DNA of 63,999 nucleotides, the filler included, from Folioceros fuciformis (lineage: Eukaryota): assembly GCA_049999805.1 (NCBI GenBank). It is 5 parts of 4 records of this genome, joined end to end, with 100 filler letters (N's around TTAATTAATTAA, not from the genome) between each part and the next. Parts side by side here need not be neighbours in the genome. Positions count along the whole stretch, not along the records: positions 49,138 to 61,883 come from JBNGIO010006012.1; 4 more parts are not named here. The stretch is one strand, 5' to 3'. Of this stretch, positions 7,865-63,999 are shown one piece after another. Position numbers and translations under genes: made by a program. The first letter of the stretch is position 1; every line of letters begins with the position of its first letter. A model generated the notes under the pieces. It was not told the origin of the DNA. It searched no databases and was given only the letters and a program-made list of their open reading frames with translations.

Positions 7865-7964
7865 NNNNNNNNNNNNNNNNNNNNNNNNNNNNNNNNNNNN
7901 NNNNNNNNTTAATTAATTAANNNNNNNNNNNNNNNNNNNNNNNNNNNNNNNNNNNNNNNNNNNN
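7865..7964. other. Artificial contig linker (N44-TTAATTAATTAA-N44)
   Basis: Identical stop-codon spacer recurs at 32665-32764, 49038-49137 and 61884-61983. Confidence 0.97.
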
Positions 7965-18235: not shown

Positions 18236-18486
18236 CAAAGCCATGATGCATGGCCATGCCAAAAGACCCACAACTACTACCAAGCATAGTGTGTTGAGCC
18301 ATGATGCATGGCCATGCCAAAAGCCACAACTTCCCAGCATCATATGTTAAGCCATGATGCATGGTCATGCCAAAAGCCACAACTACCAAGCATCGTGTGT
18401 TGAGCCATGATGCATGGCCATGCCAAAAGCCATAACTGCCAAGTATAGTGTGTTGAGCTATCATGCATAGTCATGCCAAAAGCCAA
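18236..18486. repeat. Tandem repeat, ~53-58 bp unit, ~5 copies
   Basis: GCCATGATGCATGGCCATGCCAAAAGCCACAACT...GTGTTGA repeated. Confidence 0.9.
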
Positions 18487-32235: not shown

Positions 32236-32889
32236 ACGTGTGCGGCGATCTCAGCAGCTCACCATGCGGATGCGGGCGGCCTCCCCTTCTGATATGTAGC
32301 AAGTGATTAGTCCATCAATTGTACATACTTCGCTGCAACACTGGAAGGGAGCTTAGCAGAAAACCTGTACAACAGCACTCTCACGTCTTGCAGATTATTT
32401 GCAGTCCCTGCGGTGACAAAATTGCGCACATGCAGGACTCGTCCATCTTTCTTTCTATGGGGCGCCTGTAAAGTAGTCCAGGGAAGGGATCTGCTTTGGG
32501 TTGAGTTTCAGTTTATTCTTTCTTGGCTTGGCATCGGAGGTATGTCCCATGGCCACATCCAACAATAAAACCCTCGAAGTAAATGTTTTGATTTTGGGTG
32601 CCAGTGTTTTCCGATTTCAATAATTGACTGTTTCTCTCGTTCAAGGAGTGATCAGTTTGTAGAANNNNNNNNNNNNNNNNNNNNNNNNNNNNNNNNNNNN
32701 NNNNNNNNTTAATTAATTAANNNNNNNNNNNNNNNNNNNNNNNNNNNNNNNNNNNNNNNNNNNNCTTTGAAGGCTAGAAGCTTTTGATTTCATTAACTCT
32801 AAATGAATGTCCAACTTCAAATATGTTTCATAATCTGCCTAGAAATGACAAATCATGCATTATTATTCATTGTAACATGAGGGAAATAG

Positions 32890-34330
32890 TTATGTCTCTA
32901 TCATTGTTACAAGTTACTTTGTTTTGAATTCATGAAGTTTGCTTATGTTGGAGTTAAATTGTTATACCTTAGCTGCGTCGAAGTATTGAAGCAAGTTTCG
33001 ACCAAGAGAGGAGACCACTGTAGGGTATTCTTCAAATCTTCTTTCTTCACCTCTCATGACATGCTCATCAACTCTTTGGAAATAATTAATGATATTTTGT
33101 AGGTCATTTACCTTCTCTTCTAGGTGGACAACATTCCATCCTATTTCATTGTTTTGAGCTCTGAGCTTGTTCACATAATTGTGATCAATAAATAACCGTA
33201 GTACCACCGAAGGATCATGACAATCCATATGCATAATAAAATAATGTCCTTAAACTAAGAAAGGGCACAAAATATTGGAGAAACTCAATTCAATTGAGTT
33301 CTATGTAGGGCACAAGAGAATGTACCTGCAACAGCAATGACCATTTAGCCCTTAAGCATGCACAATACTTTACTTGACAAAGCATATAAAGGCTAGAATA
33401 AGCCTTGTAGTGGCTAATGCACTTCATCTAACTTAGGTTACGTAAAGCCTTACAAAGCATCAGAGCCAACTTAGATTATGAGGAATCTTATAGTAATCAG
33501 TGCAACTTAGGGTAGGACAAGTCTTGTAGAGTTTTTGAGTCAAGTCAAATTATGATGGTCTTCGTAATAGCCCATATTGTACAACCATGCCAACCTGGGT
33601 TAGAAAGAGTCTTTTGCTGACCAAGAGCTTGATCCAACTTTAAATATGAAGAATATCATTAACATTGCAACAACCTTACTAGATAGCACAATGAAGTGCA
33701 CCCTATAGTAGCTCTACACTTAGGTTTGTCTAGCTTAGGTTAGGGAAGTCTCTGGATGACCTAGCACTTGACCCAACTTAACATATGAAAGAATGTACTA
33801 AGGTTCCAACAAGTCCTATGGCTAGATCACACATAAACTCAGCTTAACCTAAGTTTGAAAAAATCTAACAAACAATGCAAAGGTACTCAACTTAACTTTG
33901 TTGTCCTCCTCATCCTTCTACAATAACTCCATACCCGCATTACAAAGAGCATATGCATTCCCAGAGGAGCCGTAAGCTATGGTTGGAAATAGTGGAAGCA
34001 GTGGAATCATTCCTAGACAATAGCATATGACATAGATCAACGTTATCCTTCAAAATAGTAGAAGGAATCCTTGTAAATAACCTAGGACATAGATCAATTT
34101 TGCATGGGCAATAACTTAGGATATTGATTGATATGATCCTTTTCAATGATAATAAGCTAAGAGGCGGTAGTAATAAGCTATTGAATGACAAGTATAGACT
34201 ACGTAGACGATAATAAATAGTCTAGTAGATCCATCTCACTGATAACAAAAGGTTAGTAGATTCTAGAAAATACTAGTTACTTGGTTTAAATTATGCATTA
34301 CATCAATTATTTCTTATATTTTAGACTACT
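32890..34330 (-). repeat. Copy 1 of a diverged ~1.45 kb direct duplication carrying an orphan ORF (32962-33234)
   Basis: Collinear similarity with 37215-38670, e.g. CTCAACTTAACTTTGTTGTCC and TTCTAGAAAATACTAGTTACTTGG in both copies. Confidence 0.85.
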
Positions 34331-34802
34331 CCATTACATGGAAACTTTATTTTAAAGAAGAGTTGGAGACCTATCTACCCTACAAGAAAAGGAAACACCC
34401 TCGTAAAGGGCATTTAAACTAAGGAGATGTTATAGTATGGACATAAGAATTTGTCCACATACATTACTCATAGACAGTGTGTGATTACTTAATAAAAACA
34501 AGATGGAAAACCCTCTACCTTGAAAGGAGTGAGACAAACCACCAAAGGTAACCAAACCACCAAGGCCAACCCCTAAAGCTATTAAGCCTAAAAACTACCA
34601 ATAGCACCTAAGATATTATGGTTTGGAAGAAGCAAGAGTCTACCCATTGAAGTTGTTCACATCTCCTCTCAAACCCTAGATAAGGAAAGGGTCAGTTTGG
34701 ATAGAAACAGAGTCCAGTGTATGAGCACTCCTTGAAGGATAGAGAATCGGCCTCCTCGGCCAACAAAAGCATGACATCACACACAGCATCGTGTATAGTG
34801 AT

Positions 34803-37214: not shown

Positions 37215-38670
37215 ATCTCTATCCTTCTTGCAAGTACTTTGTGTTGAATTCACTAAGTTTGCTTATGTTGAGGTTTAGTGCTTACACCTTGATTTGTTCA
37301 GTTTGAAGTCTTGTAGAATAGAGTTCCCAGATGGGTCGTAGCAAATATCGACGAGCACATGAGATCAATGTGAAATTTTCTTCTTCTGTGGGATGGTCAT
37401 TGATTCTGGTAGGCCCATGGTGGTTTGAAAAATAATTCGTGATGAATTTTATGTCATTCATGTCCTCTTCTAGCTGGGTAATCTTCCATTCCAATTCATT
37501 TATTCTAGATCTGACGCTATTCACAAAATTGTAGTCAATATGTAGTTGATGATCCATAGGATGATAATCATCCATGTTCATAATATAATAAGTTCCACAG
37601 AATATTGAAGAAATTCAACTCAATTAAGTAAGATGTACGTTGCAAGGCAATGTACTTGTGACCACAAAGGTCACAATGACCATCTACACCTTTAGCACGA
37701 AAGACACTTTGCTTTACAAAACATATGAAGGCTAGAACAAGCCTTGTAGTAGCTAGTGCACTTCCTCCAATTTAGGTTACATATAGCCTTTCAAAGCATT
37801 GGAGCCAACTTAGATTGAGAGGAACCAAGCTAACTTAGATTGAGAAGAACCAAGCTTCCTGTAATCAATACAAATACACTTCGTCCAACGTAGGTTAGGA
37901 GAAGCCTTATGAAGCGCTTGAGCCAAGTCAAAATATGAAGGTCCGTGTAATAGTAAATACCCTGCATCCACTGTGGGCTAGAAATAGCCTTTTGATGACC
38001 AAGGATTGGACCCAACTTTAGATATGAAGAATATCACTTATGTTGCAGCAGGTTTACTATTGAGCATATGTACAATGAACTGAGCCTAATAGTAGCTATG
38101 TCCTTAAGTTCATCTAACTGAGCTTAGAAAAGCCTTTGGATGACCTAGCACTGGACCCAACTTAGAATATGAAAGAATATCACAAGGTTGGATGTAGCTC
38201 GTCCTTCTAGATAACGCATGAACTTAGCTCAACCTAAGTTTGGAAGAATCTTACAAACAATGCAAGGGAACTCAACTTAACTTTGTTGTCCTTCTACAAT
38301 AACTCCATACCTACATGACAAAGAACATACGCTTTCCCTCGGCAATAAGTTGTGGGTGGAAATAGTGGAGGCATTCCTTGAGAGTAGCCTAGGACATAGA
38401 TTAATATTGTCCTTCGAAATAGTGTAAGGATTCCCGGACAATAACCTTGGGCATAGATAAATACTAACACGGTAATACTTTAGTAGATCAATTGATATGA
38501 TTCTTATGTTAAGAATAAACTAAGAGATGATAATATACCAGAAGGTGGTAATGGATAGGTTAGTAGATCTACCTTATTCATACCAAAAAGTTAGTGGGTT
38601 CTAGAAAATACTAGTTACTTGGTGTAAATCATGCAGTACATTTATTATTTCTTTCATGTCAGACCCCTTC
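37215..38670 (-). repeat. Copy 2 of the diverged duplication, carrying ORF 37282-37581
   Basis: Collinear with 32890-34330; ORFs align (IDHNYVNKLR...NEIGW...LEE.VNDL..I.NYF vs IDYNFVNSVR...NELEW...LEE.MNDI...TNYF). Confidence 0.85.
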
Positions 38671-39534
38671 ATGACCAGATCTTAGACGTATAGAATTTAT
38701 TTATAATAAATATATATAACAAAAAATATCAATAGGTAATTGCAGTACATTTATGAGCATAATAAGTTTGAATAATAGGACCAAAGTAAGCCCATGTAGG
38801 CCGACCAAAAGGTAGAAGCCTAATCGAAGCTAGAAGATGTACAAACGGCGACCAAATCTGTTTGGAAGCATCTATCTTACGTTTTGCATCAATAGAACGT
38901 AGGGAGCATCGAGAGCGGTTGCAAAAGTCACGATCCAGATGGCTTGGCCTCGGACAGTGGATGTACACTAGAAGGATGTTTGTTTGCAGAGGACACTGAT
39001 TAAGTCTCATGGATCATTCAGTGTTATGTCAGCACTTCCCGATGCCATGGCTTACCTTCTAGCGGTTGTAGGTGAAAGGGATTGGCAAAGTCACGCTCCA
39101 GAGGTGGAGGATAGTGGCTGTACACTGAAAGAACAAGAGTATTTGCGGAAGACACCCATTTAAGGCTCAAGAACCCAAAGGATGTATGGGGGTACTTCCA
39201 TACGTTGCTCTTACCTTCTAGCGGTTGTTTCGTGCTACGGGCTTGGGTGTGCATTGTTTCTGAGCAGGCAGAATCACACGCTGTTGCCGCCCCTCCGGGA
39301 CAACCCAATGGCTGCAGACTTACTTAAACCACACTTCAGTGTGGAGCAAATAAATAGCCTGATGTACAGTGATCACCCCTAGCAGCAACTAAGTGTACTT
39401 GTCTTTGATGCTCTGGAGGAACTGGCTGTAACGTTTAGACTTCTCAGCTTCCCTGGCGAGACACCAGTGGGCATTGTTAGGACACTTCAGAGTAGGGTGT
39501 CTGATGCTCTGTGAGTGGCCTCGGGAGAGAGAGC

Positions 39535-47922: not shown

Positions 47923-49137
47923 GGAGAACAGATGGAATGAGCTCACAAGTCGCAACATGTACATATAGAGGGCACAGTTGTAACATGGCTGTATTATAAT
48001 TGGCTTCGTAATTGGGGGTGTGTCACCGATTTTCGTTTCTGTTTGACGGTCAATGAGGCCTTAAGGTCTTTAACTTCCTTTCGACCCTCGGTTGTTCTCT
48101 TCTGAGGGTTTTGTTCCGCGCTAAGAAGTCTAAGTCGTGGTCTTTTTTATTTCTAATATAAGACCACAATCTATTTTCACAGAAAAGTATCAAAATGTAA
48201 TTGATTCTCCATTACTCTCCATTACTAGATTCTTGTTGTACAACTATTCCACTTTTAGTGATAAGGTGTTCGGAGAGACCACTTTTACTGATGAAGGCGT
48301 TCTGAGAGAGGAGGTCAGTAGAATTTTTTTTTGGGACTGTGAGTCTGTCCGCTTTGGGAAATGCTTTGGTAATGTCTAGCTCATAAAATAAAAATAAAAA
48401 TCTAAATTGGTCATTCGCACATTTGGTTGAAATATGATGAGGTTACATTCAAAACTTCAACAGCGCCATCCAAATTCTTTCAGCACCCTCATTCTGTCAG
48501 CACCGAATCTAGGCAAGGCATTGTCAGAAATCTATTTATACTATGAGCATAGTGATGGAATAGAACAGGCAAGACAACAAGTGGTGTCTATATATCATGA
48601 TCCAAAAACGTATAATATAAATAACTTGGGTTGTGGGAGAGGGTGGTGCCCCTTCACTCTACCAAACTAACCCTAACGAAAATTGTGTACTTATATAGAT
48701 AATGAACTAAGGGGTTATTTATCTTAATAGGAATGCCAGCTTATGTGGTGAATGGAGGTGTAGGTTGCAACAATGGGTTTTGGGTTCCTTTGGTTTGTGT
48801 TTGAGGCTACTTTGTGGATTCGCGTATGTACATTCGTAAACCCTAAACACCCTAAACCCTACCCTGAGGCTGCCATCCAAGGGGAGGGCAGCCCCCGACG
48901 CGTGCAAGGGAGCTCGGGGGAGATAGCACATAGGCCACCACTGCCTTGTAGGTTGAGAATGGCAGCCCCTGCAGCAAGCAAGGTGGCAAGCGGAGGGCGG
49001 CCCCCCGGGGGACTGTGGGGAGGTAGCACGAAGGCCANNNNNNNNNNNNNNNNNNNNNNNNNNNNNNNNNNNNNNNNNNNNTTAATTAATTAANNNNNNN
49101 NNNNNNNNNNNNNNNNNNNNNNNNNNNNNNNNNNNNN

Positions 49138-49603
49138 TAAGATGTTAGGCTGCTCACATGCGCCATAGCTCACTCCATGTCGTAAAGCTGCAAAAAGGGG
49201 ACTGCCCTCGTCGGGCTGCCCAGAGTTGGTAAGTCACTAGCGGGATGCCACCATCTCCCTTACACCCTCAATCTGCATAGCTCTTCCTTTCATAGACGGC
49301 TAGTGAACAGCAAACAAAGGTTTAGGTCGTCCGGTGGTTCCTCTCATGAGCGACTTCGACAACTGCCTTTTTTCTCGCTGTGTTTAGTTTTTATGTTTGG
49401 TGCCCCTCCAAGCAGTTTTCCATGGGCTGTATGAGCCCACGTGCTTCTAGTGGGCAAGTAGCCATGGCTAGTATTTTAGCCATTTACCTAATTTAGGTTG
49501 AGTTAGTTTAATCACCTATTATCTAATCAACTGAATTCCACTAAACTATCACGTTCACCATGATGCTCTACTATAAGTCCATTTTTGCCACAATTTCACG
49601 ACA
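49138..49603 (-). repeat. 3' LTR (last 8 bp missing at contig end)
   Basis: Aligns to 58366-58831 without gaps. Confidence 0.93.
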
Positions 49604-49805
49604 GCTGTCGTGCTCCCGGTATCAGCTGTTGTGAGCACTTCAATTCAGTCCATCAGCTGCAAGGCTAATGTCTTGTGCACTCAAAAAAAAAGAGAACAAA
49701 AAGATTGTCCATGCCTTCCCCCCCCAGTTGATGGACGGGCTGAAAGCATGAAGAGCACGATAAGAGCTACACTCCTAGGTTGGTCACACCTGCTGTGTCC
49801 GGTTG

Positions 49806-49940
49806 GCACTTGGGACAATACCAAAGTTGCTCCGGTACATGGGTAAGTGGTGGCTGTAAGCAGAAAAGGTGGAAACCCCCATTGCAGCCATCACAAAGTA
49901 ACATGAGGTCAGCATCATCAATGCGTTGACAAACCTGGCA
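49806..49940 (-). other. PHD finger (C4HC3) at the integrase C-terminus
   Basis: CQVC...LMLLCDGCNGGFHLFCLQPPLTHVPEQLWYCPKC. Confidence 0.92.
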
Positions 49941-52900
49941 AGGATAGTCCGCTGGTGGAATCCAATCTGCTGTGACAATAGAAGGATCAAGATTGGGCAA
50001 GTGGCAAGGTGCGCAATTCTTGGTGTGGTCAGTGGTGATCCGACCATCTGAGCCTTGCAATACCAGGATGCCATTAGGCTTGACCTCCTAAATCCGCAAC
50101 ACATGCCGACTGCTAGAAGTGTCCAGGGCATCTGAGGTCTGCCTCTGCAGGTAAACAAAGTCTCCTACCTGGAACTTCCTGAGCTTGGGCCTAAAACTGC
50201 CTCCCCTAGTGTGTGCATAACGAAGGGTATCCCTATGCTGGGCAATGTGCAAGTTAGCCATTGCCATGGGCATGGCCTGTTTGAACAAGGCTGCCCTGTT
50301 ACCTATCACACGTGCCCATGTAGCTGCATCATCCAGCTTGACAACTTCTAGCATTTGTTTGGCTATAGAACTAGGTGGAATTGGTTCTCTGCCAAACAAG
50401 AGGAAGTAAGGGGAAAAATGGGCAAGGGCAGCATGCTTGCTCATGCGGTAACCCATTGCAATATATGGAAGCATGAGATCCCAATCTGTTTTGGGTTCTC
50501 GGAGACACAGCTTGCGAAGCCCCTTCTTCATAGTCTGGACCATGCGCTCGGCTAAGCCATCAACCTGCGGGTGGTCCCGGCTAGTTCTCCTGTGGTCAAT
50601 AAGGGCTGCATCCATTAGATCCTGGAATTCTCCTCGAAACTCAGAACCCTGATATGTGAGACACTCTGCGCAGCCACCAAACCTACTGAGCACACATTGT
50701 AGGAAGGCTTGTGAGGTACTCCTAGAGGTCTTGTCTGGCAGGGCCACTACCTCCACCCACTTGCTGAAGTGTTCCATCATGATCATCGCATACAGGTTGC
50801 CTCGTGGAGACTGCGGGAGCTCACCCATCAGGTCGCATGACCATCTGAAGAATAAACCCATGATGGGCAAAGGGTGCAGCTCTGGGTGCTGCATGGTGAA
50901 GGAAGCCTTGACACGGTCGCATTGCTCGCAACAGGCTACTCGTTCCTTCACTTGTTCATGCATTCGATTCCAGTAGAAATAGGGAGTCAACAGGCTGTAG
51001 GTGCGTTTGACCCCAAAATGACCCATGTCATCATGCACCCTTTTGATGAGGGCAGCACGATCTGCTGGTGGGGGTACCAATCGCTCCACTCCTTGAGCCT
51101 GTTGACGGATGAGATGTCCGTCCCGCCAACAATACTTGGTAGCCCGTTGGTGAACTCGTTCCCTTGTGGCCGCGGTCCAAGTGGGGTCCTCTCTACCTGT
51201 CTGCACATACTGAAGGGTAGCTGGATCCTCCCAAATATCCTTGGAGGATTGCTGAGCTGCACCTACAGGCACCTGTCCCAAGCAAGTCATGGCCACCAGA
51301 GCCGATACGGCAAGCATTGTGCTGTACTCTTCATCTTGGCGAGCTCCAGTGGTATCCACACAACTGCTGTCAGGATTTCGTGACAAGGTATCAGCATTCT
51401 GGTGCTTCACTCCTGGCCGATGTTCAACCTGGAATTCGTAATCTTGAAGGATCATGGCCCAATGTGCGAGTTTGCCACTGAGCTTGGTGTTGGTCATCAG
51501 CCACTTGAGTGGTTGATGGTCTGTCACGAGTGTGAACTTCTGACCATATAAATATGGTCTGAAGTGGCACACTGCCCACACAGCAGCGAGGCATTCACCC
51601 TCGTAGCTGCTATAGTTGGCTTCAACTCGATTGTTGCTACGCAAGGCGTAAGCAACCACACGCTCACAACCTGCTTCATCCTGTTGAGCCAGCACAGCCC
51701 CTAGCCCTAGACTACTCCAATCTGTGTGAACTACAAAGGGCTTGTTAAAATTGGGTCTGGCCAACATTGGTGCAACTGTTAGCTCCAGCTTTAAGGTGTC
51801 AAAAGCTTGTTGTGCCTGCTCTGCCCATGTCCACTCTACATCCTTGCGCAGCAGATCATTAAGAGGCTTGGCAATCCTGCTGAAATTGGGTATGTATACT
51901 CGATAGTAATTGCATAACCCTAGAAATGAACGCAGGGCTGATACGGTGGTCGGTTCCTTAACCTGCATAATTGCCTGAACCTTGGCAGCATGTGGGGTGA
52001 CACCATTGGGGACAATTTTGTGACCCAAATACGCCACAGTGCTCATGCCAAACTCACACTTGGCTGGGTGGCACGTGAGTTGTGCCTTCCGTAATCTTAT
52101 AAACAGGTCTTCCAGGTGTACCAAATGATCCTTGAAGTCCATGCTGTGGACTAGCACATCATCAATGTAGCACATGAGATAGCCGGCTCCAGCTAGTACT
52201 ATGTCCATGATGCGCTGAAAGGTCACTGGCGCATTCTTGAATCCAAAGGGCATCACTAGCCATTCCCATAGCTGTTGAGAACCATGGAAGGCTGTCTTCT
52301 TGATATCTTCAGCTGCCACTGGGACCTGGTTAAACCCTTGTCGCAGGTCCAGCGTGGAGAAGAACATAGACTATCCAAGACGGTCAAAGATCTCCTCTGG
52401 TGTTGGCATTGGGTACCGATCCTGGGCAGTTACTGCATTGATGGGCCTATAGTTGCCACACATCCTCTTCTCAGTCCACAAACCCTGACTGTCCTTTTTG
52501 GGTGGCATCACAGTGGTAGCAGCGTAGTCACTGTTAGAGGGACGTATTAGGTTCGCCTCATACAGCTCCTTGCATCTTGCATCCACCATGTCCCATTCCG
52601 TCTTGCTCAACCTATACCGTCGCCTGTATACAGGCTCTTGGGTGGTAAGGTTGATGCGAAAGGTTGTGACATTGCACCTCTTGAGCTCATGCATGGAAAA
52701 GGCAAAACAGTCCCTGTACCTAAGCAGCAAGTTACGAATGCGGTCCTGTTGCTTCAGACTGAGTTCTGAGCCCATTTTCCACGGGAAATTAACAGCAGAC
52801 AGCTTGGGTGTAGCTCCTGGATCCTCCTTTTCTGCCTTGGCTTGATCAGATGCTGAGTAAATAGTACGTGATGCCAATACTGCGTACTCCCCCCCCCCAG

Positions 52901-53037
52901 CATCTAGCTAGAAAGGCAGCTGTGTGTATCCTGGGAATGGGAGGTGAACAGCATCTCCAGGGCAGATGCTAGCAAACAAGCCTGGGAGTAGCATGGGAGT
53001 GACCTGAGTGTGCAGCTGAAAGGCAAGGCACAAACTC

Positions 53038-53975
53038 ACCAACCATGTGATGGCATGGAGGTCCATGGCTCGTCCTAGAGTGCCCTTGCGCTGCCGATTG
53101 GTGACAGTGGGGGCCGCTGTACTATGGGTTTGAAAACCCATGAGTCGCTCTCGCTCCTCAACTGTTGGTTCTTCCCACCGTTGCGTTTCAGTATTCAATA
53201 ATAAGCCAGGTCCTTCTCCTCTGTAAGCAAATGAACCCGGAAAGCTGACCAGCGTGGGCAACGTCAGCCTTGGCTGACCTGGAATGTTGGTCTTGAACCA
53301 AGGGGCTTTCTCACTGGCCACCACAGGTCGTGGCTGGTGGTAGTTCTCCAATACAGTACAAAGTTGCAGCCCTGGATCCCTGCTAGTGTTCCAGAGAGCC
53401 AAGTCCAACACGGAGACATGGACCAAATTGGTCCAGTAGTTACGAAGCCTGTGGGCATAGCTACCCACCTGCACAGCATCCATGAGGAATGGTGGCCCTG
53501 CAAAATGTCGCACAATGGCCATATCCTGCTGCACCTGTGGCCGGGTATCAAACTGGGCTGGTGTGTTCTCGAGCAGGTATGCACATTGAGAGTTACTATC
53601 TTGTGCCCATGCCAAGATTTGTTGGAGATCTCTAAACAGACCAGAACGTGGATCTGTCAACCCTGCACCTACCCCAGCTTGAGAGAATCCTTGGCATTCC
53701 CAGCCAGCTATGACCATGTCGATGGGGCCCAAGGCTTGGATGTGGCCCTGCTGTATATACTGGACGTCCTGAGGTAAGGACGTGAATGTATTAGCCAAAG
53801 CCTCAGCTGACAATTGCTGTGGGAAACGATGTTGTAGACCCTGCAGCCGAAATGCAGCAATTTGCCTGGCAACGGGGTCTTTGTCACAGTAAAGGTACCT
53901 TTGAATGCTCAAACCTGTCAAGAGCAAAGCTTCTAACCCGGTACAAATACCACCAAACAGTTCAACGACTGTAAG
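53038..53975 (-). other. DNA (cytosine-5)-methyltransferase domain, DNMT3-like, within the polyprotein
   Basis: Motifs in canonical order: I VVELFGGICTG, II CDKD, III QDV, IV DMVIAGWECQGFS (catalytic Cys at 53696-53694), VI YLLENT, VIII DAVQVGSYAHRLRNYWTNL, IX ERERLMGF, X RKGTLGRAM. Confidence 0.9.
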
Positions 53976-56900
53976 GGCTAGCGCAGCCGGTGCCCATATG
54001 ATGACAGTATTGTCCACATAAGATGTGGGACAAGATGATAGGGTCCCGGCCTCCAACAATTGTTGCACCTTGCTGACCTGCTCTTGTGCCTTGGTCAGCA
54101 ATGCCTCTGCCTGCTCTGGACAGTCAGGCTGAACTAGAGCTTGCTGCAAACTAGTACACCTCACTTGGGCCTCTGCAACATTGGTCTCTAGATGCTTGTC
54201 CACTTGGTATGTGTCTTGGACAAGCTCCACCACATTGCTACTTTTGATACCAACTACAGCCGGGCTTTTCACCAAAGTGGCTACATCAACCTCCACCTGG
54301 CCATGCAAATCTAATGGCAGATGTGCAATGCGACGACCTCCTTGCTTCCAGTCAGGCCTATAGAAGGCTTGCTCAGTCCAGTTATCCACACCAACTCCTG
54401 GTGGAAAGAGGAACTCTTGCCCCAACAGCAAATCATAGTTGGTGGCTGTGGTTACCAGGCAGGGCAAGGACAATGTCATGGCATCTGGCGTGCCCGAGTT
54501 CAAGGTGATGTCCAGGGGTTGGACTGTCTCACCACAGACTGGTTCAACAGCCCCGGATGCCGTCCTGATGTTCCAAGGCGAGGTATGCAATGCATCACCC
54601 TGAAGATGCAACCTTGCAGCTAGAATCTTCCCAACGAGTACTGGTTGGGCTCCCGTGTCTAGCAACACCACTCTGGGTGCATACCCATTGATTGTGACGT
54701 GCCCACAACGATTGTCAACAACTGCATTGCTGACACGAGCTTGCAGTCGATTGGTGGACTGCACTCGCGGTTGGCTGTCAACTCCCTCAACTAGCTGTAC
54801 AGTGTAAGAGCCATTGCAGTGACTTGGTGCTGTCTGCCCACCTGTAGAGTGTGACATCGCTATTGGCAGCACCCATTGTGAAGTGTACGCTGTACCCAGG
54901 CTAGGGTCTGCAGATGCAGCCGTGGCTTCAGCAGTTTGAAGAACTTCCTTCAGCCTGCTGGTCGTGATGCCCATGTCCTGCAGTGTGAAAACTGGCACCT
55001 GAGTTAGCTTGGCAGCCAGTTGTGTGACTGTGGTGGTTTGGGGTAAGAGATACACATGCTCTGGTGTTGGCATGCTATGGCCAGGTGTTCTACTCGTGGG
55101 CAGCTGTTCCACACGCAGCGTTGAGTGCTCCTGGCCTCGTACCGGAATTGCAGACCCCGGTGGCAGCGGGGCAAAGGACTTTGGCATGGTAGCCCTAGCC
55201 CCTCGATTCCTGGTGATAGGCCCTAAGGCAGGTGCTATTGTTCCCATGACCACCTGTAAATTCTGCCCCACCCATGTGGCTGGCAACTCCACCTCCATGC
55301 TGCTCTCACCAATTCTGTCAACCATACATACTTGGTGTGCTGGGCCATAATCCTCATCCTCTGGTCCTGGTACCAACTTCACCACATTGGCTGGTTTGGA
55401 AGAGCCGGTGATGCTGGACAGGTTGGCTGTCAAGACTCCAAGTTGAGCTGTCATGGCAGCCATGGAAGCCTCAAGGGAGCTGACCTTGTCAGCAGTGGCG
55501 GCTGCCTTAGCCTTGGCCTTGTCACGCTGCTGCTTATTGCGGGACAACCCAACAACGCTCCTAGTTCCTCCTGCTTCCACACTAGCAATTGTGGCTCCTG
55601 CAGACCCTACGGTACCAATCTTCTGGTATCTTCGTTCGGGGTGCTTTTGGAAGCACACAGTAACCACGTGTCCATTCTTCTGGCAATGGGTGCAGTAGAG
55701 TCCCTCCGGAGGACACTTGCATGCAGGGGACATGTGCTCAGGGCTGCCACAATGGTTACACATGGCTACCACTGCTGCCGTTGGAGCTGCTGCTGAAGCT
55801 ACCTTAACTGGCTTAATCTGACCAGCCTTGGCTCCTGCACCTGTGTTAGCTGCCCCCTTGCTAGAGAACATGGACTGGTAGTGCGTGAAGGCCTTGGAAT
55901 GCCGAGAGGCATAGGCCGAAAAGGCTACCTCCTTCTTCTCAGCTTCTTCATGCACTTGCTCCAAAGTATACTTGTCCCCATATTTGTCCACCAAGGATGT
56001 AACCAGCTGGAAATGAAACAACGGGTCTCCTTCAAGTGCAGTCAAAAACCTTTGCGCTGCTTCCTGATTTGTTAACATCCCTGTACCTTCCCTCAATTTC
56101 TGTAGCCTCCTGAAGCACATCTGGACTGTCTCCCCCTTTTTGCGAGCAAAGGCAGCAAGTTCTGCAATTTTCTCTGGGGTCTTCAGTGGGAATGCCCTCT
56201 CCAAAATAGCTAGGAACTCCTCCACTGGGTTCAGGTACTTGCAAGTGTGTAGAAACTCTTGCACACCAGCTGTGGCAGTAGCCCGCTCTGCTAGTGTCAA
56301 ATTCACCACCGTTGGAAGTGGTGTGGTGGCGGAGATGGTCTTGGCTACAATCTCAGCCTGATGGTCATTAATGGCTGCTGCCAGTTTGGCATTATATGCC
56401 AACTGTAGAGCCGAATGATGGGCTGGGTTAGGAGTGGCAATTGTGCCCGATAGCTCAGCCTGGTGAGCCTCGTACAAATCCAATGCCTCATCTGCTAAGT
56501 AGCTGGACAACTGTTCAAACATGTACTGGTGGTTGTAGGCAGCACCATGTTTGAACTTCACCCTGCTGATGACTGCATTGATGAACAAGCGGAAGTCCCT
56601 TAAGGATTGGGTGCTTGGTCTGCCTGAGAATTTCTCAGGCCTAAACCCTGATGAACCACCCTCCATGGTGTCTGACCCTTCAGACAAGTCACCCAGGCCT
56701 TGCCCTACACCAAGGACAGACCCAGCAAACCCTGGATGTGTCTGCTGTGACCTCACAAATGATTGCTGTGAATAGAGAGACCCTTGTTGTTCAGGTTCCT
56801 CGTCACAAACTAGCTGACCCCCTAAATTTGAGCTAGTTAGCACAACAATCTTGCCCAAGTCTAAGAGGGGTGACCAGCTGGGTTGCCCAACGGATGTTGC

Positions 56901-57584
56901 TGGTTCCAAGTCCTCTCTCAAGTCTTCTTCACTTGCAAGTTGGCGTCGTCGAGCTGCCCATCTTCTCCTCCGTTGTGCACGCTCCGGTGATACCCTGATA
57001 GGAATGTCTCGACTCCTCAATCGGTAACGTAGGCTGGCCTCTTGCTGATCTGGTTGCATACCCCATGCACCCCTGTTACACCTACAGCTGGTGCTTGGCA
57101 AAAACAGTGAGGTGCTGTGCTGCAATTGACAACATCGGGCCTAGGGAAGTGACTCTCGCTGGGACACCACACACTGCTTCAGTTGTACCCACAGTACCTT
57201 CAGGCTTCTACTGGCTGTTGCTGGCCTCCAAATCAAACCCTTGTTCTCAAAGGCAAAACGAGCCCCTAAACATGTGGTTCGAACAAACCACGCATGCAAG
57301 AAATGAGGGTTAGCTCCTCCCAAATAATCTGATGGTGGCCTCCCTTCATGCCGCGTCTGGTCGTAGCTTACAGCTGCCCCCCACAGTCTGAATGAGTGTG
57401 AGCAAAGCTCAGCTACTCCCTATCCAGATAATCCTAGTTTGGGAAAATCCTACCCCTGGAAAATCTCAATTCCCTAGGCTTGCTGGGCAGGTGTAACTGT
57501 GATCAGAAAGCAAAGAAACACAACTTTCTTGGAGTACTGAGGGAACAAGAAATCTACCCCTCCCCAAAGCATCCATGATCAGCC

Positions 57585-57912
57585 ATGTCCCTCTTCCTGC
57601 AGTGATCTGATCCGCAGTGAAAATCTAAGATCAGTCCCTGGAATCAGCTTAAGAGTGAGCACAAAGCATACCAAAATGTTTGCCTCTACAAGAAAAATCT
57701 GTTGGTATGTAGATCAAAGGGAGCCAAGCAGAATTGCGGCCGTTATGTCCTCCTCTTGCAGTGATCTGATCCACACTGAAAATCTAAGATCAGTCTCTGG
57801 AATCAGCTCAAAAGTAAGCGCAAAACATACCAAAATGTTCGCCTCTTCACGAAAAATCTGTTGGTATGTAGATCTAAGGCAGACAAGCGGAATTGCGGCC
57901 GTTATGTCCTCC
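57585..57912. repeat. 159 bp tandem duplication in the 5' leader of the DNMT element
   Basis: GCAGTGATCTGATCC...GAAAATCTAAGATCAGTC...CATACCAAAATGTT...GAATTGCGGCCGTTATGTCCTCCT at 159 bp spacing. Confidence 0.9.
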
Positions 57913-58348
57913 TGAAGTTTGACTTCCACACCCTCAAACCCCAAACCCGAGGCTTAAGTGCGTCAAATGCTGAGCGACTTGCTGGGGCTGCCTCGATGTG
58001 GTCTCTTGGCGGTGCCTTAGCTGCCAGCTCTCCTAAGCCCTGTCTATAGAGCCTTGGATCAACATGTAGCTGCTGCGAGTAGAAAGGTAGTTGCTACAAC
58101 ACTGAGCATGCACATTCCAGACTCACGGCTGCTACAAAGGAAGAGAGGGATTCTCCAAGGCTGCTGCCTGAATGCACATGTCTGGCCGCGCCCCTAGAGT
58201 CCCTACAAACCCTAAATCCCTAGCAATGCAAAGGGAAAATGACAGACTTCACACAAACGGGTCTGGATGGGTGCTCCACAAATGCTGCCTTGCTGTAGCT
58301 GCTTGGCTGCGCTCTAAGAGCTCCTCGCCTGTGCCCTCATTGCCTGAC

Positions 58349-58598
58349 AAAGGTAGTTGTCGAAGTAAGATGTTAGGCTGCTCACATGCGCCATAGCTCA
58401 CTCCGTGTCGTAAAGCTGCAAAAAGGGGACTGCCCTCGTCGGGCTGCCCAGAGTTGGTAAGTCACTAGCGGGATGCCACCATCTCCCTTACACCCTCAAT
58501 CTGCATAGCTCTTCCTTTCATAGACGGCTAGTGAACAGCAAAAAAAGGTTTAGGTCGTCCGGTGGTTCCTCTCATGAGCGACTTCGACAACTACCTTT
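58349..58598 (-). promoter_or_regulatory. Self-priming signature: PBS/U5 junction complementary to the putative transcript 5' end
   Basis: AAAGGTAGTTGTCGAAGT (58349-58366) is the exact reverse complement of ACTTCGACAACTACCTTT (58581-58598). TATA-like CATAAAAA (58623-58616, minus) lies ~25 nt upstream of the latter. Confidence 0.7.
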
Positions 58599-58831
58599 TT
58601 CCTCGCTGTGTTTAGTTTTTATGTTTGGTGCCCCTTCAAGCAGTTTTCCATGGGCTGTATGAGCCCACGTGCTTCTAGTGGGCAAGTAGCCATGGCTAGT
58701 ATTTTAGCCATTTACCTAATTTAGGTTGAGTTAGTTTAATCACCTATTATCTAATCAACTGAATTCCACTAAACTATCACGTTCACCATGATGCTCTACT
58801 ATAAGTCCATTTTTGCCACAATTTCACGACA
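58358..58831 (-). repeat. 5' LTR (474 bp; TGTCG...CGACA termini)
   Basis: Matches 49138-49603; 5-bp terminal inverted repeat; similarity stops exactly at 58831, where an unrelated RT frame resumes. Confidence 0.9.
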
Positions 58832-59645
58832 CAAACAAACTGCTAGCCAAGAGAAGCAAGTGCGTTTTCATGAGGGAGAAATGTGAATACCTTGGCCATG
58901 TGATCAGTGCAGTGGGCATCCAGGTGGATACACGTAAGGTTAGCGCTTTGATGAACTGGCCCTTACCACAGGACATCACCCAGCTCTGGGGGTTCCTAGG
59001 TATGGCTGGTTTTTACAGGCGTTTTATCAAGGGCTTCACTAGTATTGCTATACCCTTGACATATGCTTTTAGGCATTCAGCANNNNNNNNNNNNNNNNNN
59101 NNNNNNNNNNNNNNNNNNNNNNNNNNNNNNNNNNNNNNNNNNNNNNNNNNNNNNNNNNNNNNNNNNNNNNNNNNNNNNNNNNTGAAAGTAGGAAGTTGAA
59201 AGGAGCACAACTGAACTATCCAATGCATGACAAGGAAATGCTGGCCATTACACATGCCCTAAAAGTTTGGCGACATTACCTCTTAGGACAGAAAGTGCTG
59301 TGTCACACGGATCATCCCTCCTTGCAGCACTTTTTCTCTCAGCCCAACTTGAATGCTCGGCAACAATGATGGGGTGAATCCCTTGTAGACTACCACCTAG
59401 AGATCCAGCATGTGTCAGGCTCGACCAAAGTGGTTGCAGATGCCTTGAGTCGGCATGCCTGCACCCTCCTGAAAACATAGTCCCAAATAGTTCAGTTAGT
59501 ACGAGATGGGATTCCCCATGACCCAGCCCTGTTGCAACTGTACAAACAATTATTGACAGATGCACAAATAGGGATCCCCACAGCACTTACCCAGAAGTAT
59601 TCCCTCCAGGACTCTTGTGTTTATAGAAAGGGGAGATTGATCAGA
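58832..59645 (+). mobile_element. Older degenerate Ty3/Gypsy RT-RNase H fragment (insertion target of the DNMT element); contains a 100-N gap
   Basis: NKLLAKRSKC...EYLGHVIS...[33 protein letters not shown]...HTDH; stops and frameshifts. Confidence 0.85.
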
Positions 59646-61720: not shown

Positions 61721-62190
61721 CTAGTGTTGATAATGATTAAAGGGTTTGTGCTATTAAGATAAGATATGTAGAGTTATGTTTAGAATATTTAAGTGACGTT
61801 ACATAAGAGTCACGTCTTAAGTGAACAACTACAACATTTCAGTTAGTTTAAGTTGAGTTTCATGTTTTATAAACTAAGTCTCTNNNNNNNNNNNNNNNNN
61901 NNNNNNNNNNNNNNNNNNNNNNNNNNNTTAATTAATTAANNNNNNNNNNNNNNNNNNNNNNNNNNNNNNNNNNNNNNNNNNNNTGAGCCTAGCCGCTATA
62001 AGGCATGGGGCGTAAACAAGAGCTACAAGAACAGCGAACTTGTACAGAGCTGACTTCAAATTGTCCCGCTCCATTGGGAGCCTATGCCACATAGGGTACA
62101 CACACACGCTCAAGCAAGAAGCCCAGCTGAACTCATAGTCTCCACAGGCTACTCGCGAAGGAGAAGACTGACCGACCCATAATAATCAAC

Positions 62191-62398: not shown

Positions 62399-62981
62399 AT
62401 AATATAGTTGTTTATTATAGAAATTGGTCTACACCAATCCAATCCAATATATGTCAGTGCCTTCGCTCTGATCGCCCGTCTTTCGCTCACGTCCCATCCA
62501 CCACTTCTACTTCTCGACTCCTCGGTTTCGTTCCTTTTCAAAAGCACCCTTGGACCCTCCTGGTCCTTACTTGGGGTTTTCCTCTACCCGGCCGTTTTGG
62601 TTCAGCTACCCATCGGAGCTCCACCACCAATTGTCTCCTCCATGATGGTGGTTCACCTTCCCGCACCGTTGCTAAGTCACGACTTCCTTATTTTCTAGCC
62701 TAAGTCCACGACCTTCCTCGCNNNNNNNNNNNNNNNNNNNNNNNNNNNNNNNNNNNNNNNNNNNNNNNNNNNNNNNNNNNNNNNNNNNNNNNNNNNNNNN
62801 NNNNNNNNNNNNNNNNNNNNNGTCCGGCTATTGGTCTACCTTGAAACTTCATGGTCCAAGGAGGTCTTGTGTATGTATACCCCTGCTTATTCTCAACTTA
62901 AGCCGCTTTCTCCTTTAGTTCACAAAAGAAAACCAGATCTAACACTTGGGAAGGGGGTTCTCAAATATTTTTTCCTCTACA

Positions 62982-63446
62982 AGCCCTCACTCACGGTAGT
63001 GTCAATCGAGAGACCTCACTCACGGCATTGCCAATCGGTCAGGGCAATGCCAATCGGGAGCCCTCACTCATGGCAGTGCCAATGGGGAGCCCTCACTCAT
63101 GGCAGTGCCAATGGGGAGCCCTCACTCATGGCAGTGCCAATCGGGAGCCCTCACTCATGGCAGTGCCAATCGGGAGTCCTCACTCAGGGCAGTGCCAATC
63201 GGGAGTCCTCACACACGGTAGTGGCAATTGGGAGCCCTGACTCACGGTAGTGTCAATCGAGAGCCCTCACTTACGGCAATGCTAATCGGGAGCCCTCACT
63301 CACGGCACTGCCAATCGGGAGCTCTTACTCATGGCGGTGCCAATCGGGAGTCCTCACTCACGGCGGTGCCAATCGGGAGTCCTCACTCACGGCAGTGGCA
63401 ATTGGAAGCCCTCACTCACGGTAGTGTCAATCAGGAGCCCTCACTC
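62982..63446. repeat. 29 bp minisatellite, ~16 copies
   Basis: GGGAGCCCTCACTCATGGCAGTGCCAATC repeated head-to-tail without spacers. Confidence 0.95.
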
Positions 63447-63999
63447 GGTCCCTTTTATCCACAAACAGGTTAGAGGTAGAGAAAAAAATTTCCTATACAG
63501 TATATATAGGTAGATTAGATGACGTGGTGAGGATAAATAGAGAAATATTCCGTTGATGTAATGGTATATTTTAATATAAAATATGTATTAAAAAATGAAT
63601 GTGTAATCCTATCCGTATCGGTATTCCATAGGCATGCACTTAAGGTTGACAAGCCTTAAATGAAATTCTTGTTTTTCTTATGGCGGGTGATAAGCAATTA
63701 ACTGTTTTGTATATCTAAAGTGAAACATAAAGTTACTACCTAATATCCGTCACATGGTCGAGTGGTCTGAAGAACCAGTCCGACAGGTCGCCCAAAGGTA
63801 TTATAGGACGGCTCACCCCTTCAAGCAGGACGGCTCACGGTTCACCCATTCAGGCTGCTGTGGTCATACATGCGTATGTACAGGGTACCCGGCCGGGGAT
63901 CCGCCTAGACGAGACTTTTGTTAGAGTCATCTTCCGACAGCGGTCCCTGAACGATGGCCACAGTTTGGCAACCGGACCTGTTGTGGACCCAACAAATTG

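Follow-up and report, generated by a model that had tools for sequence, protein, structure and literature searches.

Sequence signature of probable Tf1-type self-priming in a DNMT3-bearing Gypsy-order retrotransposon of Folioceros fuciformis and its relatives

Introduction

Self-priming, which frees a retrotransposon from host tRNAs, has so far been tied mainly to the Tf1/sushi/Tcn1 chromoviruses and to one copia lineage. The 11 bases at the start of the Tf1 RNA anneal to the primer site, and RNase H cleaves the RNA directly behind them, between bases 11 and 12 (PMC7175516). Self-priming has also been proposed for Tj1, for the Tcn1 clade and for the TAR lineage of Ty1/copia elements in plants (PMC4600332, PMC6317226).

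Two further groups of described elements are close to the one reported here. KnitGypsy-Dnmt3 of Klebsormidium nitens combines a Gypsy Pol with a Dnmt3-type methyltransferase, and its repeat structure was described as "the same as that of a DIRS retrotransposon" (de Mendoza et al. 2018; PMC5890265); the terms "primer binding" and "PBS" have 0 occurrences in the main text of that article. Tyrosine-recombinase retrotransposons of the PAT-like and Ngaro types carry repeats in the order A1-internal-B1-A2-B2, and other split-repeat elements restore their ends via internal complementary regions, as outlined in PMC7192593.

Here we describe a retrotransposon, the DNMT element, in the window (the whole stretch of 63,999 nt of Folioceros fuciformis DNA that was analyzed, filler included). 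It is like Tf1 and the other self-primers (Tf2, Tj1, sushi, the Tcn1 clade and TAR), as these are presented in PMC7175516, PMC4600332 and PMC6317226, in that it has no tRNA-type primer site, its predicted RNA 5' end is complementary to sequence beside the 5' repeat, and its Pol domains stand in a Gypsy-like order. It differs from Tf1 in the length of the complement, which is 13 to 18 nt in the DNMT clade and 11 in Tf1, and from Tf1-like elements in carrying a PHD finger where those have a chromodomain, in the DNMT3-like domain inside its Pol and in the split direct repeats, as opposed to plain LTRs, of its relatives. With KnitGypsy-Dnmt3 it shares a Dnmt3-type methyltransferase in a Gypsy-order polyprotein, and its relatives have the split-repeat structure noted by de Mendoza et al. 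(PMC5890265), but the window family is a different member of the clade. The order A1-internal-B1-A2-B2 is common to the DNMT clade and the PAT-like and Ngaro elements of PMC7192593, whereas the DNMT clade has a DDE integrase, TG...CA ends and 4-bp target duplications (flanks read by eye). By descent, sequence comparison places the DNMT element with the KnitGypsy-Dnmt3-like elements, while in mechanism all of its testable sequence features agree with the Tf1 type. A literature search found no paper linking self-priming with the DNMT3-like Gypsy clade.

Results

The DNMT element, its repeats and its open frame

The DNMT element is a Gypsy-order retrotransposon that lies on the minus strand inside one contig (49138-61883), and its domains follow the order protease, DNMT3-like methyltransferase, reverse transcriptase, RNase H, integrase and PHD finger (Table 1). 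The best solved relatives of the methyltransferase are DNMT3A catalytic domains (E 3e-10). Three in-frame stops (52908-52910, 52371-52373 and 50088-50090) show that the window copy is not intact. The chromodomain PF00385 is absent from the Pol of the window, and the presence of the PHD finger PF00628 at the C-terminus in its place ruled out the classification of the element as a chromovirus. No further copies of the element were found within the 64-kb window, and an Rfam search returned a single sub-threshold match, ascribed to chance. A 159-nt tandem duplication (89% identical, 57590-57907) lies in the long leader, which runs from the proposed primer site to where the open frame begins.

Table 1. 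Features of the DNMT element, with positions counted along the window
Feature	Position	Strand	Remarks
5' repeat (A1; the 5' LTR of the earlier note)	58366..58831	-	466 nt, 98.9% identical to 49138-49603
TATA-like box CATAAAAA	58616..58623	-	Arm 1 starts 24-25 nt downstream
Arm 1 AAAGGTAGTTGTCGAAGT	58581..58598	-	Predicted first 18 nt of transcript, proposed self-primer
Arm 2 ACTTCGACAACTACCTTT	58349..58366	-	Proposed primer binding site, at or just past the 5' repeat end
Second copy of the last 11 nt of arm 2 (sense CAACTACCTTT)	58083..58093	-	In leader
Open frame, 1410 aa: Gag-like N-terminal part, aspartic protease, DNMT3-like methyltransferase	52908..57140	-	Pfam
Aspartic protease	about 54408-54698	-	Pfam PF13975/PF13650
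DNMT3-like methyltransferase	about 53415-53975	-	Pfam PF00145, between protease and reverse transcriptase
Same frame continued: reverse transcriptase, RNase H, integrase, PHD finger	49767..52907	-	Frame end 49767-49769
PHD finger, Pol C-terminus	49806-49940	-	PF00628, E 4e-13
G-rich polypurine tract GGGGGGGGAAGG	49714..49725	-	
B1, from polypurine tract to 3' repeat	49606..49717	-	Ends CACGACA; assigned by analogy with relatives
Perfect 16-nt palindrome CACGACA-GC-TGTCGTG (CACGACAGCTGTCGTG) at the B1/A2 junction	49597..49612	-	CA-NN-TG
3' repeat (A2)	49138..49603	-	Cut by contig end
Linker (N run, TTAATTAATTAA, N run)	49038-49137		Adjoins cut A2

The 5' repeat A1 begins with TGTCGTG at 58831 (at 49603 in the 3' copy), a start confirmed in public runs by six DNA contigs from run X1 and five from run X2, in which the repeat gives way at that point to the internal sequence found ahead of the 3' copy. 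The extent of A1 is proven as far as 58366, and its true end lies between 58367 and 58358. Because the contig linker cuts the 3' repeat at 49138 (equivalent to 58366), the repeat end is unreadable in the window; moreover, since B1 begins with A after the G-run, the A at 58366 could equally open a following B segment. For the DNA contigs, none of the rows listed (14 of 65) showed a loose end near 58358-58367, and only one diverged contig piece starts at 58367.

The 5' flank (58832-58950) is also a repeat, to judge by its depth of 56-98 in the DNA runs, and one loose-end consensus there resembles, by eye, a YxDD-type motif of reverse transcriptases. On account of these two observations, the DNMT element probably sits inside another retroelement.

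Complementary arms at the predicted transcript start and the repeat end

Direct reading of the two arms, which the earlier note had described as perfectly complementary over 18 nt, gave 18 perfect Watson-Crick pairs, with the flanking pair mismatched on both sides. A chance test agreed with that description, in that none of 20,000 random (Markov-1) repeats reached 14 nt of complement against the same 40-nt junction window, the maximum being 13 nt, attained five times, and 218 control windows from the element interior gave a maximum of 11 nt. A TATA-like box about 25 nt upstream of arm 1 had likewise been reported and is present. The report that no TGG-type primer site follows the 5' LTR also holds, TGG being absent from the 30 nt after 58366. 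When the RNA from 58598 to 58335 was folded, its 5' nucleotides were predicted to pair with arm 2 with a probability of about 1.

In the 3' copy, arm 1 reads AAAGGCAGT, and so carries the single transition that the earlier note had recorded, a T/C change at its sixth base (58593 = 49365). This position is polymorphic for T and C within the family, and the C form, which gives a C.A mismatch with the primer site of the window copy, was found at depths of 80/308 in X1, 393/656 in X2 and 3.5/3.5 in related organism B. Among the differences listed (40 of 101), none was a change of the partner position, 58354, within the family. The perfect match of the window copy may in part be fortuitous, and its extent of 18 nt may result from a C-to-T change that the 5' repeat acquired later. 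The partial extra copy of the arm that had been noted in the leader proved to be an 11-mer lying 256 nt into it (chance expectation about 0.002 per element), with no counterpart in seven related copies.

ARAGORN found no tRNA genes in the window, nor any tRNA in the related loci (taken as all 182 fetched). Among the public runs, none of those on record as RNA was listed as containing the DNMT element. A possibly-RNA run, X3, was considered as a source of transcript ends and rejected, as its single 9251-nt contig, made up of the interior and a single repeat, overlaps itself by 25 nt, which marks it as a circular assembly with no start or end. This contig, from an independent sample, differs from the window at eight positions within 58000-58831, none of them in either arm; such conservation lends weak support to self-priming, weak because the arms make up 36 of the 832 nt.

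The same geometry in related families

Relatives were gathered by Pol protein searches of named databases, metagenome contigs, and viral and genome contigs. Matches in the named databases came from Closterium, K. nitens and liverworts, many of them with PF00145 and a C-terminal PHD finger (PF00628); the best was 64% identical to the Pol of the window, and those of K. nitens were 39-45% identical. The metagenome contigs yielded 80 loci (L001-L080) with Pol 44-66% identical, and the viral and genome contigs a few more, L144 among them. In a quick tree, built without a mixture model or Tf1/sushi reference sequences and with long branches flagged, the window, the related loci, two retrotransposon proteins of K. 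nitens, and the Closterium and liverwort proteins formed one clade of 24 rows (SH-aLRT 100); two proteins with a chromodomain fell outside it, as did tRNA-primed elements.

Four of the loci (L144, L083, L084 and L167) have identical contig ends (99-141 nt), indicating circular assemblies. L144 and about 39 other eukaryote-type Gypsy loci come from records whose labels assign them to genome bins of bacteria or archaea, probably through binning contamination.

Three families of relatives, F1, F2 and F3, have Pol sequences 46-62% identical and repeat sequences that are unrelated. In F1, the arms are TAGTTTTTCTAGAATT and AATTCTAGAAAAACTA, with a complement of 16 nt in L062, 15 in L018 and 13 in L007; the layout is TATAAAAGG, about 22 nt and then TAGTTTTTCTAGAATT, with the partner AAT/TCTAGAAAAACTA at the 5' repeat end (slash), and 21 distinct copies keep 12 to 16 of the 16 pairs by hand count. 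In F2 (L073 and L070), AACATAGTTCTTTGAGT lies 27 nt past TATAAAG and is complementary over 17 nt to A/CTCAAAGAACTATGTT. In F3 (L144), ATCTTTGTCAAGT lies 29 nt past TATAG and is complementary over 13 nt to ACTTGACAAAGAT, 163 nt downstream. The distance from the TATA-type box (TATAAAAGG, TATAAAG or TATAG) to arm 1 is thus 27-33 nt in the relatives and 24-33 nt over all four families, and in folds beginning at arm 1 the first bases were predicted to pair with arm 2 at a probability near 1 in every family. Across families, the comparison that the earlier note had proposed came out in its favor: the same two positions are filled, in four families, by four unrelated complementary sequences.

TGG was found at the primer site position in none of F1, F2, F3 and the window family; the same search found CA, 2-3 nt and then TGGTGGCAGCGGTGG there in five more distant Gypsy elements (L163, L168, L172, L176 and L177). 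A junction complement of at least 10 nt was present in 9 of 17 related loci with both repeats, versus 11 of 1020 control windows, and the other 8 of the 17 keep less than 10 nt. The related copies are old and decayed. No additional 5'/3' pairs emerged when another 29 and 19 loci were searched for repeats under relaxed settings, and the self-priming signature was absent from the viral-contig loci L081-L083 (for L084, among repeat pairs only).

Split repeats in the DNMT3/PHD clade

The repeats of the relatives follow the order A1-internal-(G-run)-B1-NN-A2-B2 (L001-L080; for example, L062, 3957-4272 and 12624-13289), in which B, about 175 nt long (about 113 nt in F2), precedes A2 and recurs after it. 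A census covered the 59 of 80 loci that match A or B of L062 (family F1) and found, after Pol, B-A-B in 31 loci, B-A in 1, B without a following A in 24 and A only in 3. A-B-A occurred in 0 of these 59 loci, and B stood ahead of the upstream A copy in 0 of 28. Two of the 24 loci in which no A follows B, the A-internal-B copies L027 and L067, carry 4-bp target duplications; such copies may have arisen through recombination between B1 and B2 or through direct integration.

A G-run stops 0-4 nt short of B in 25 of 25 related loci. B1 of the relatives ends in CA, which is followed by 2 nt and then by the TG of A2, an arrangement like that of a circle junction. Target duplications of 4 bp stand outside the TG that opens A1 and the CA that closes B2, being perfect in 5 of 14 loci and matching at 3 of 4 bases in 3 more (flanks read by eye). 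In the relatives, the CA end with the target duplication is that of B2, and repeat A ends in ...TTCAAT or ...TTTTCA. In the window itself, the G-run and B1 are followed by the CA-GC-TG palindrome and by A2, and B2 would fall beyond the contig end.

To judge by these sequences, the DNMT3/PHD clade is built A-internal-B-A-B, and the ends set by reverse transcription and by the integrase do not coincide. Those set by reverse transcription (the A end at the primer site and the B start at the purine tract) appear to be joined within each copy, and the integrase ends would lie at the B/A palindrome.

Discussion

We consider Tf1-type self-priming to be the best reading of the arms of the DNMT element, with a probability of roughly 0.75. 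Transcription would begin about 25 nt past the TATA-like box, at or next to 58598 to judge from the TATA spacing, and the first 13-18 nt of the RNA are predicted to fold back onto 58366-58349, next to the 5' repeat end. By analogy with Tf1, the RNase H of the element would cut the RNA past the paired stretch, and the freed 3' end would be extended into the repeat. As the plus strand would copy the primer, the site would be rewritten from the RNA 5' end in every cycle, which would explain how the arms stay complementary although their sequence differs from family to family. Self-priming is supported by the recurrence of one geometry in four families of the clade, each with an unrelated sequence. 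The Tf1-like reading of the earlier note is accordingly supported as to the missing tRNA site and the predicted transcript 5' end that pairs beside the 5' repeat, features that recur in four families, but not as to membership of the chromoviruses, the Pol having a PHD finger and no chromodomain.

The arms might instead form a functional RNA stem, serving packaging, dimerization or translation control or being of the U5-leader type, while another primer does the priming. Stems flanking primer sites are known from retroviruses, and an RNA that includes both arms is predicted to form this one with a probability of about 1. We nevertheless think this unlikely. No alternative primer site is visible, TGG being found in 0 of 4 families and the four sites being unrelated in sequence, and in all families the 5' arm lies at the TATA-predicted start and the 3' arm at the exact repeat end, a placement that priming needs and a general stem does not. 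In addition, the repeat end at the A2/B2 junction maps to arm 2: it varies by 0-4 nt (..TTCA, ..TTCAAT, ..CAATT, ..CAATA), with bases that match the first bases of arm 2, as expected if DNA synthesis starts at the primer site. That the arms are a chance inverted repeat with no function we regard as practically negligible, for even though short inverted repeats are common and those of 13 nt stand at background level in the related loci, no random repeat in the simulation reached 14 nt, the placement recurs in four families, and a scan upstream of Pol in the related loci found, outside one tandem-repeat region, no perfect repeats of at least 15 nt other than the arm pairs. A very unlikely alternative is that the complementarity serves a permuted mode of replication, for example by guiding a template switch or end joining, and not minus-strand priming. 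The A-internal-B-A-B order is indeed unexplained by standard reverse transcription, and internal complementary regions are used by other split-repeat elements to restore their ends (PMC7192593), but we found no scheme in which pairing of the arms makes the A/B junction, and the pairing is exactly what Tf1-type priming needs.

The earlier note had given self-priming in a more exact form, with the boundary between LTR and primer site placed between ACTTCGACA and ACTACCTTT and a primer made of the first ~9 nt only. The repeat would then end in ...ACTTCGACA (58358), and the 9 nt that come after the primer would pair with the U5 end. This version is attractive in that TGTCG...CGACA would form a 5-nt terminal inverted repeat with the repeat start and in that CA is the usual end of LTRs. 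The argument from CA fails in this clade, however, where the integrase end, a CA with target duplication, belongs to B2 and not to repeat A, and the 3' copy that would have displayed the boundary is cut at 49138. A 9-nt primer needs a repeat end at ...CGACA, whereas arm 2 begins 3 nt (F1) and 1 nt (F2) before the 5' repeat end, and one diverged DNA contig ceases to match the window at 58367. Neither the boundary nor the 9-nt primer was sustained, and we judge this version quite improbable. With only 1-3 nt of the complement inside the repeat in relatives, we infer that the primer site takes up all or almost all of the 18 nt and that the primer measures 13-18 nt rather than 9.

Tf1-type self-priming, as preferred here, leaves the repeat order to be accounted for. 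Standard reverse transcription from the primer site and the G-run tract would yield B-A-internal-B-A. Several schemes for A-internal-B-A-B that invoke reverse transcription only were worked by hand and discarded, none of them yielding the A/B joint. A two-LTR circle opened randomly at either palindrome was rejected as well, since it predicts A-B-A-internal-B, at odds with the 0 of 59 census loci with A-B-A and the 0 of 28 with an A preceded by B. Tentatively, and with more doubt than confidence, we suggest that the provirus is circularly permuted: the cDNA would end at the A end and the B start, the integrase ends would lie inside it at the CA-NN-TG palindrome, and the joined cDNA ends would be reopened there by the DDE integrase before or during integration, with a circular or end-joined intermediate being obligatory. 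Each full copy would then hold an A/B joint resembling a two-LTR circle junction. The mismatch between the boundaries of reverse transcription and those of the integrase is a puzzle separate from priming, and it could reveal an unusual integration route.

What is new here is the lineage that would use self-priming, the mechanism itself being already known. The signature, found across a streptophyte clade with its own DNMT3-like enzyme and PHD finger, would extend that mechanism to a new lineage, and a clade hitherto described by domains and odd repeats only now has a concrete, testable replication model. The PHD finger at the Pol C-terminus may target the integration of the element to certain kinds of chromatin.

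The window consists of contigs strung together, with linkers (44 N, TTAATTAATTAA, 44 N) at 7865-7964, 32665-32764, 49038-49137 and 61884-61983 and some 100-N gaps, and parts that adjoin in it may be apart in the genome. Away from the DNMT element, three collinear segments, 78-83% identical and about 4.34 kb apart, link 33335-34337 with 37674-38675. A 53-nt tandem repeat occupies 18273-18484, and a tandem array of at least 12 units of 29 nt lies at 62981-63502.
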